From assembly GCF_965641715.1 (NCBI RefSeq), contig NZ_OZ282453.1: a DNA stretch of 64,000 nt. One strand, 5' to 3'. Shown one piece after another: positions 14,839 to 15,218 of the stretch. Under the pieces are notes generated by a model. It was not told the DNA's origin and ran no database searches. It was given only the letters and a program-made list of their open reading frames with translations. This DNA comes from Escherichia coli. GTDB lineage: Bacteria > Pseudomonadota > Gammaproteobacteria > Enterobacterales > Enterobacteriaceae. Made by a program: the position numbers and the translations under genes. Numbering within the stretch: position 1 is the stretch's first letter; the number at the start of each line of letters is the position of its first letter.

Positions 14839-15218
14839 AATGAATCCTTTTTCGATTTATGAGAATAAATACTCATTTAAGGGTGAAAACATTTTGCCTG
14901 CAAATGATTATCAGGAAATATAACATTATCGAAGTATTCAAATTAACAACTATTAAATAATATTAAACATTTTTAACGTAAACATTAAGAATATTCATCT
15001 TGTTATCTGTCTGTATTTTAACCAGAATTAAATCAGTATTAGATGCCGTATGAATATCTCGAAATGTTGCTGTGTATCACATACAAATTATCACCGCAGG
15101 ACCATAGTATTTACATAAGGTTTGTCCCCCGGAGGTAGTCATCGCAGCAATCGAGTAAATTAGCTTCACCACGGTATATTGTTTCCGTAGAATACCCATA
15201 ATTATAAGAGAGGTTGTT

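Follow-up and report, generated by a model that had tools for sequence, protein, structure and literature searches.

The yffB-ypfM gap, its composition and its conservation

The region studied here is the intergenic gap between yffB and ypfM, in a 64-kb stretch of the Escherichia coli chromosome (contig NZ_OZ282453.1), referred to below as the window. The yffB gene, encoding an ArsC-family reductase, occupies positions 14482-14838 on the - strand, its start codon ending at 14838, and dapE lies beyond it on the same strand (13351-14478). On the other side of the gap, the ypfM coding sequence (CDS; 15219-15278, + strand) begins with an ATG at 15219 and encodes the 19-residue protein MIERELGNWKDFIEVMLRK. 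A terminator hairpin (15337-15372, placed on the + strand by the terminator scan) follows ypfM and adjoins the stop codon of acrD, which occupies 15377-18490 on the - strand. The gap is therefore 14839-15218, exactly 380 bp. In the RefSeq annotation it is surrounded by yffB, ypfM and acrD, and no feature is placed inside it. Because yffB (-) and ypfM (+) run in opposite directions away from it, the region is a divergent one, and it is very probably a control region shared by the leftward yffB-dapE-ypfN operon (- strand) and the rightward ypfM (+ strand). We conclude that, as a divergent promoter region, the gap is ordinary and for the most part already documented, and that it contains no hidden RNA or gene.

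An earlier note, made from the sequence alone, had described the gap as an AT-rich 380-bp interval upstream of ypfM, with several A/T tracts and no open reading frame (ORF). Its coordinates were exact, its gene names right, and the AT-richness is pronounced: the GC content is 0.311, while the window averages 0.528, and the gap stands at z = -4.6 relative to all 380-bp segments. The lowest 200-bp GC of the whole 64 kb, 0.235, falls within the gap, and values below 0.33 over 200 bp were found elsewhere in the window only at 29999-30298, 47666-47876 and 48053-48258. Composition varies along the gap, from 0.278 in 14839-14910 to 0.225 in 14926-15054, 0.31 in 15055-15090 and 0.40-0.50 in 15091-15199. 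The 129-bp segment 14926-15054 (22.5% GC, no strand assigned) is called the AT-rich core in what follows. It lies upstream of every mapped or inferred transcription start, on both strands. The A/T tracts do exist, but they are not special, as 5 runs of at least 4 were seen in the gap versus 6.95 ± 2.3 in composition-matched shuffles.

The gap contains five ORFs of 22-33 codons. Four of them are intact only in the window sequence, and the fifth (15050-15118) is intact in 4 of the 41 aligned sequences described below, so that the absence of an ORF is borne out in the useful sense: none is conserved. The terminator scan reported no terminator-like site within 14839-15218, and an Rfam search over 14000-16000, with E values up to 10, left the gap without a match. 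With no terminator, no Rfam family, no conserved or stable structure and a poorly conserved core, the gap gives no support to a small-RNA gene of its own. A repeat search of the gap returned only short two-copy matches, probably due to chance, and the core in particular has no conserved ORF, terminator, RNA-family match or notable repeat. One of the matches is a 13-nt direct repeat, ACATTATCGAAGT (14923-14935) and ACTTTATCGAAGT (15250-15262), identical at 12 of 13 positions and also probably fortuitous; one copy adjoins the yffB -10, the other is within the ypfM CDS, and both score as H-NS-motif-like.

For the comparison with relatives, a genome scan with YffB yielded 80 Enterobacterales loci; motifs were counted over 74 intergenic regions, and 41 gaps of similar length were aligned. 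The divergent ypfM/yffB pair was found in 73 of the 80 loci, and the arrangement is kept across Enterobacteriaceae. The gap has a median length of 389 bp (202-1540) and a median GC of 0.373, versus 0.541 for the whole loci. It is syntenic, and about 380-390 bp long, in Escherichia, Citrobacter, Enterobacter, Leclercia and Lelliottia. Conservation along it alternates sharply, column identity being 0.7-0.9 in promoter blocks versus 0.34-0.46 in the AT-rich core, its least conserved part. The conserved segments are the yffB ribosome-binding region (14839-14852), GGAAATATAACA (14915-14926), 15055-15090, the hexamer CATAGT (15103-15108), 15141-15161, the -35 and -10 of the main ypfM promoter, and the 19 nt preceding the ypfM ATG.

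Some loci carry additional genes at this place. In five loci from Kosakonia and Mangrovibacter, an extra ORF of 143-145 residues, oriented as yffB, is present in the gap; it appears GNAT-like, as judged from a QGRGYGKQLM motif alone. In Yersinia nurmii, the gap is 1.5 kb long and holds a 180-residue ORF. The genes inserted in Kosakonia and Yersinia have no relic in E. coli: searched against its gap by tblastn, they gave E = 13 at best. Within E. coli, a 701-bp piece around the gap has a match of at least 95% identity in 5425 of 5426 complete genomes. In the isolate F374, an IS1A insertion has entered the gap, with loss of the yffB N-terminus (3230-3960 of locus L002, corresponding to about 14660-15120 of the window), and a contiguous match to the gap is missing in 43 of the 5426 E. 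coli records, versus 1 of 5426 for the yffB CDS. Taken together, these two observations indicate that the AT-rich spacer is an occasional site of insertion or deletion. The ypfM intergenic region was also listed among the top five loci informative of host or niche (turkey, rat, wastewater) in a 2024 source-tracking study.

The main and proposed upstream ypfM promoters, transcript and protein

The main ypfM promoter, P1 (15165-15193, + strand), is a sigma70 promoter composed of a -35 TTCACC (15165-15170), a 17-nt spacer and a -10 TAGAAT (15188-15193). It was the sole match of the promoter scan in the gap, it is conserved in the alignment of relatives, and identical hexamers were given by Shimada et al. 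2014 (PMC3946193). Two ypfM starts were mapped by Kim et al. 2012 (PMC3415461, Table S1) in MG1655 grown to log phase in M9 glucose, at 2588907 (4 reads, 19-nt leader) and 2589017 (2 reads, 129-nt leader). Positions on NC_000913.2 equal 2,604,107 minus the window coordinate, a conversion that was checked using the 51-mers printed in the same study, and the starts 2588907, 2589017 and 2589359 (the last belonging to dapE, see below) are found at 15200, 15090 and 14748 of the window. The start maps to which the earlier note had pointed as a check therefore place two published + strand ypfM starts within the interval. The main one, an A at 15200, sits 7 nt past TAGAAT. It opens a 19-nt leader (15200-15218, + strand) that is nearly invariant among aligned relatives and contains a Shine-Dalgarno sequence GAGAGG (15208-15213), 5 nt before the ATG, as good as had been announced. 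The conserved block ATCGCAGCAATCGAGTAAATT (15141-15161, + strand), which covers -59 to -39 of P1, could be either UP-element-like or a site for an activator.

Of the 80 related loci, 73 conserve the ypfM CDS, for which the gene table gives Pfam PF28148. In relatives the protein always has 19 residues, with the pattern MI[ED]xE[LMV]GxWK[DE]FI[ED]xMLRK, and it has been detected with full coverage by top-down mass spectrometry (PMC12529367). Its 3′ untranslated region (UTR; 15279-15376) is 98 nt long, longer than the CDS itself. The end of ypfM and this 3′ UTR (15258-15377, + strand) match the Rfam family STnc250 (RF01409) over the full-length model, at the orthologous place and outside the gap, with 37.5 bits, which is below the gathering score of 42 (E = 3.4e-5). 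In Salmonella, STnc250 is the ypfM small mRNA, which is associated with Hfq (4-fold enriched), depends on growth phase and gives a Northern band of ~220 nt (Sittka et al. 2008, PMC2515195). The whole E. coli mRNA starting at P1 folds unusually well (z = -2.9). A conserved seed of the small-RNA kind was sought in the ypfM 3′ UTR, where only the terminator turned out to be conserved; the hairpin 15302-15326 is not conserved between genera. With an A-run before its stem and a T-run after it, and the acrD stop directly adjoining, the terminator hairpin at 15337-15372 could plausibly be the bidirectional terminator shared by ypfM and acrD that had been proposed earlier, but the scan called it on the + strand only.

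Upstream of P1, about 110-165 bp from the ATG, a second conserved module is present, made of a 36-bp block and the hexamer CATAGT. The block (15055-15090, + strand, consensus TaTTTCAAAATATTGCnGTnnnTCACATAAAATTTA) is deeply conserved, almost invariant across Enterobacteriaceae, and has as its core TTGC (15067-15070), 6 variable bases and TCAC (15077-15080). The -10-like CATAGT (15103-15108, + strand), replaced by CATATT in some genera, follows at a fixed 21-22 nt after TCAC. The composite motif TTGC-N6-TCAC-N21/22-CAT[AT][GT]T was found in 58 of the 74 intergenic regions, its arms invariant, its centre variable and its spacing fixed. It stands 114-130 nt from the ypfM ATG even in gaps of 700-860 bp that hold an inserted gene, meaning that the module belongs to ypfM and not to yffB. 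In the Kosakonia-type loci, too, it remains beside ypfM.

The module coincides with the minor ypfM start at 15090 (+ strand; 2589017 in K-12, 2 reads, 129-nt leader) and with the longer Salmonella transcript. Salmonella positions were taken from a Salmonella enterica contig, in which the published Fur and marbox strings were found, confirming its identity. The transcript lengths computed there are ~146 nt from P1, ~227 nt from the start predicted by CATAGT, and ~252 nt from the equivalent of 15090. Considering the minor E. coli start together with the ~220-nt Salmonella band, an upstream ypfM start is supported by two independent data sets. The long leader showed no special folding (z = -0.03). 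Between K-12 and the window, only two differences exist in the gap, at 15089 and at ~15121; the first, T to C in K-12, directly precedes the minor start.

Promoters of class II, activated by CRP or FNR, have a dimer site centred at -41.5 and no -35 hexamer, the consensus sites being TTGAT-N4-ATCAA for FNR and TGTGA-N6-TCACA for CRP. In the upstream module, a distance of 29.5 bp, with no intervening -35, separates the centre of the two-arm core (15073.5) from the first base of CATAGT downstream. Compared by eye with the two consensuses, TTGCTGTGTATCAC agrees in E. coli at 8 of 10 positions for FNR and 7 of 10 for CRP, and the agreement is weaker in other genera. Judging from the sequence, a sigma32-like pair, CTCGAAA-N12-TCACATAC, would fit the start at 15090 about as well as the CRP/FNR reading does. 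We put forward tentatively, and with less than even confidence, that the 36-bp block and CATAGT form a second, regulated ypfM promoter, dependent on a CRP/FNR-type dimer or on an alternative sigma factor such as sigma32, with a leader of ~105-130 nt, and that Salmonella ypfM would be transcribed mainly from this promoter.

Other identities were considered for the 36-bp block. A sigma54 reading was rejected by eye, no GG being found at the right distance from GC, and none of the OxyR, PurR, TyrR, Lrp, Nac, IHF, MarA and CytR consensuses, compared in the same way, was convincing. A weak MarA peak has been reported by chromatin immunoprecipitation in the Salmonella ypfM<>yffB region (PMC10268841). 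Overlap of the published Salmonella marbox with the block was rejected, as the marbox is located 35-50 bp further upstream in the Salmonella sequence.

The proposed yffB promoter and leader

On the yffB side, the extended -10 element TGTTATATT (14925-14917, - strand) would belong to the promoter of the yffB-dapE operon. It is present as an exact match in 27 of the 74 intergenic regions. Its distance from the yffB ATG varies (predicted leaders of 59-103 nt), as fits a promoter element rather than an element of the leader. The general pattern TGNTATAHT occurs at only three sites in the window, of which this is one. In Salmonella, TGTTATATT ends 8 nt before -97, the 5′ end of a published yffB::gfp fusion, which we took as the transcription start. 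From the conserved -10 and this fusion end, we infer that E. coli yffB is transcribed from about 14909-14910. The predicted leader (14839-14910, - strand) is ~72 nt long and includes a Shine-Dalgarno sequence AAGGA (14849-14845); no folding signal was detected in it (z = +0.6), i.e. it appears unstructured.

In Salmonella, the yffB mRNA is a target of the small RNA SdsR, and the fusion carrying -97 to +75 of yffB is repressed by full-length SdsR (Froehlich et al. 2016, PMC5137417). Expression of yffB is also increased 2.6-fold in a Salmonella fur mutant (PMC3212961). For dapE, Kim et al. 2012 (PMC3415461) report a start at 2589359 (8 reads, 270-nt leader). Its window position, 14748 on the - strand, is inside the yffB CDS, and we conclude that dapE has its own internal promoter besides the operon promoter.

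H-NS, the AT-rich core and comparison with known systems

Sequences resembling TCGATAAATT are high-affinity nucleation motifs for H-NS. The earlier note regarded the interval as typical of regulatory DNA bound by nucleoid proteins, and this was supported in vitro. The ypfM<>yffB spacer binds sigma70 holoenzyme in vitro, being listed as a 'type-A spacer' at map position 55.80, and it holds one of the 987 H-NS sites obtained in vitro by genomic SELEX (systematic evolution of ligands by exponential enrichment) (Shimada et al. 2014, PMC3946193), but the motif and A-tract signals are weak. Within the spacer, the AT-rich core is most likely the H-NS-bound part.

The gap would then be organised as follows. 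The left fifth (14839-14925) would consist of the unstructured, AT-rich yffB leader and the extended -10 TGTTATATT, and the right third (15055-15218) contains the ypfM promoter apparatus, with the P1 start at 15200 and the conserved module upstream of it. Between the two promoters, the core would be an untranscribed spacer, fast-evolving between genera. It would act as upstream promoter DNA, easily melted and UP-element-like directly upstream of the yffB -10. The same AT composition would make it a substrate for H-NS, which probably damps both promoters and may silence them in vivo.

A number of observations weigh against this scheme. The H-NS motif is barely enriched, with 2 two-mismatch matches in the gap and 68 over the window versus 55 ± 7 expected; A-tracts are not enriched in the gap, and H-NS binding is documented in vitro only. 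Among E. coli records, 4552 of 5426 (84%) carry a gap that matches the window at 99% identity or more, whereas the yffB CDS reaches this level in 2629 of 5426 (48%). The gap is thus less diverged than the neighbouring CDS, and the description as a fast-evolving spacer holds between genera but not within the species. The read counts of the ypfM starts are very low (4 and 2), and no good sigma70 -10 precedes the start at 15090, which is also 25 nt off the start predicted by CATAGT. As for yffB, the promoter was assigned from conservation and by equating the 5′ end of the Salmonella fusion with a transcription start, and Kim et al. 2012, in log phase in M9 glucose, list no yffB start in the gap. 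A different yffB promoter, TTCATA-16-TTTAAT, was predicted by Shimada et al. 2014 (PMC3946193). By our placement, its hexamers fall at 15055-15028 (- strand), and the -10 lacks conservation; the 180-nt leader that this promoter implies would moreover disagree with the 5′ end of the Salmonella fusion. For these reasons it was rejected.

Three other explanations of the AT-rich DNA have to be weighed against a shared control region with an H-NS-bound core. The most serious is that the core is neutral DNA upstream of promoters, and that H-NS binding in SELEX reflects its composition, with no regulatory consequence in the cell. The core is indeed poorly conserved between genera, the gap varies in length from 202 to 1540 bp, and neither the A-tracts nor the H-NS motif exceed the expectation based on composition. 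The H-NS SELEX mark, moreover, is found on 36% of such divergent spacers and so is not specific, and ypfM is expressed well enough for its product to be detected routinely by mass spectrometry, as one of few such small proteins. Nevertheless, the gap stays AT-rich in all genera examined (median GC 0.373 vs 0.541), it has changed less than the neighbouring CDS within E. coli, and H-NS does bind it in vitro, so we regard strict neutrality as unlikely, while giving it real weight. Much less probable is that the interval is transcribed, either as a long regulatory 5′ UTR of ypfM or as an independent small RNA, both of which the earlier note had envisaged. What speaks for transcription is the minor start at 15090 with its 129-nt leader, the Salmonella transcript of ~220 nt, which exceeds the ~146 nt computed from P1, and the 4-fold enrichment of ypfM mRNA with Hfq in Salmonella. 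The longer 5′ UTR is thus partly borne out, but any such leader would be confined to 15090-15218, in the conserved and less AT-rich third; the main leader is 19 nt, and 14839-15054 is upstream of every mapped or predicted + strand start, so that the AT-rich part is not included. The small RNA found no support: the gap has no terminator and no Rfam match (E up to 10), the long ypfM leader and the yffB leader fold with z values of -0.03 and +0.6, the STnc250 match lies outside the gap, and the core is the least conserved part.

The last explanation sees in the AT-rich DNA a xenogeneic sequence brought in by horizontal transfer, or what is left of a lost gene, kept silent by H-NS. It is largely refuted and in our view highly improbable. 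A GC of 22-31% against a background of 53% would suit it, as would the extra gene found at exactly this place in Kosakonia and Mangrovibacter, the 1.5 kb of Yersinia nurmii, and the IS1A insertion of one E. coli genome. However, the gap is syntenic and of similar length (~380-390 bp) across five genera, 5425 of the 5426 E. coli genomes carry it, it contains no repeats or mobile-element ends, and the inserted genes, used as tblastn queries, gave no match in it better than E = 13.

Much of what is described here was already published, namely the genes, the main promoter, the ypfM starts, the in vitro binding of H-NS and RNA polymerase, and the small mRNA. Our additions are modest: an assignment of the yffB promoter backed by conservation, a sharply conserved second ypfM promoter module, and the mapping of the AT-rich core as the least conserved part of the gap. 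The yffB-dapE promoter proposed here would replace the SELEX-derived prediction. The upstream ypfM module could be used for finding what regulates YpfM, which is well conserved and readily detected; if it is truly a second promoter, the identity of its regulator would be the first clue to when this protein of unknown function is needed. The overall importance is small, and the AT-rich DNA hides nothing unannotated.

Among known systems, the closest are the type-A sigma70 spacers with an H-NS site, since this spacer is itself catalogued among them (ypfM < HNS > yffB), with back-to-back units and AT-rich DNA (Shimada et al. 2014). It departs from its entry in that catalogue on the yffB side, where the conserved extended -10 is ~110 bp closer to yffB and fits better. 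The predicted E. coli yffB leader resembles the AT-rich 5′ leaders targeted by small RNAs, as exemplified by SdsR and Salmonella yffB, in being AT-rich and unstructured, but it is predicted to be ~25 nt shorter than the Salmonella one, owing to an indel. With the Salmonella STnc250/ypfM mRNA, the E. coli counterpart shares the 19-codon ORF and the terminator, and differs by ~25 extra, non-conserved nt in the 3′ UTR; the STnc250 family spans the end of the ORF and the 3′ UTR, and no part of 14839-15218. Finally, the upstream ypfM module shares with class II CRP/FNR promoters the geometry of paired arms, the fixed spacing and the lack of a -35, which would place a start at ~15115. It differs from them in that its arms are not symmetric and form no true inverted repeat, and in that the minor start at 15090 lies 25 nt upstream of the predicted one.

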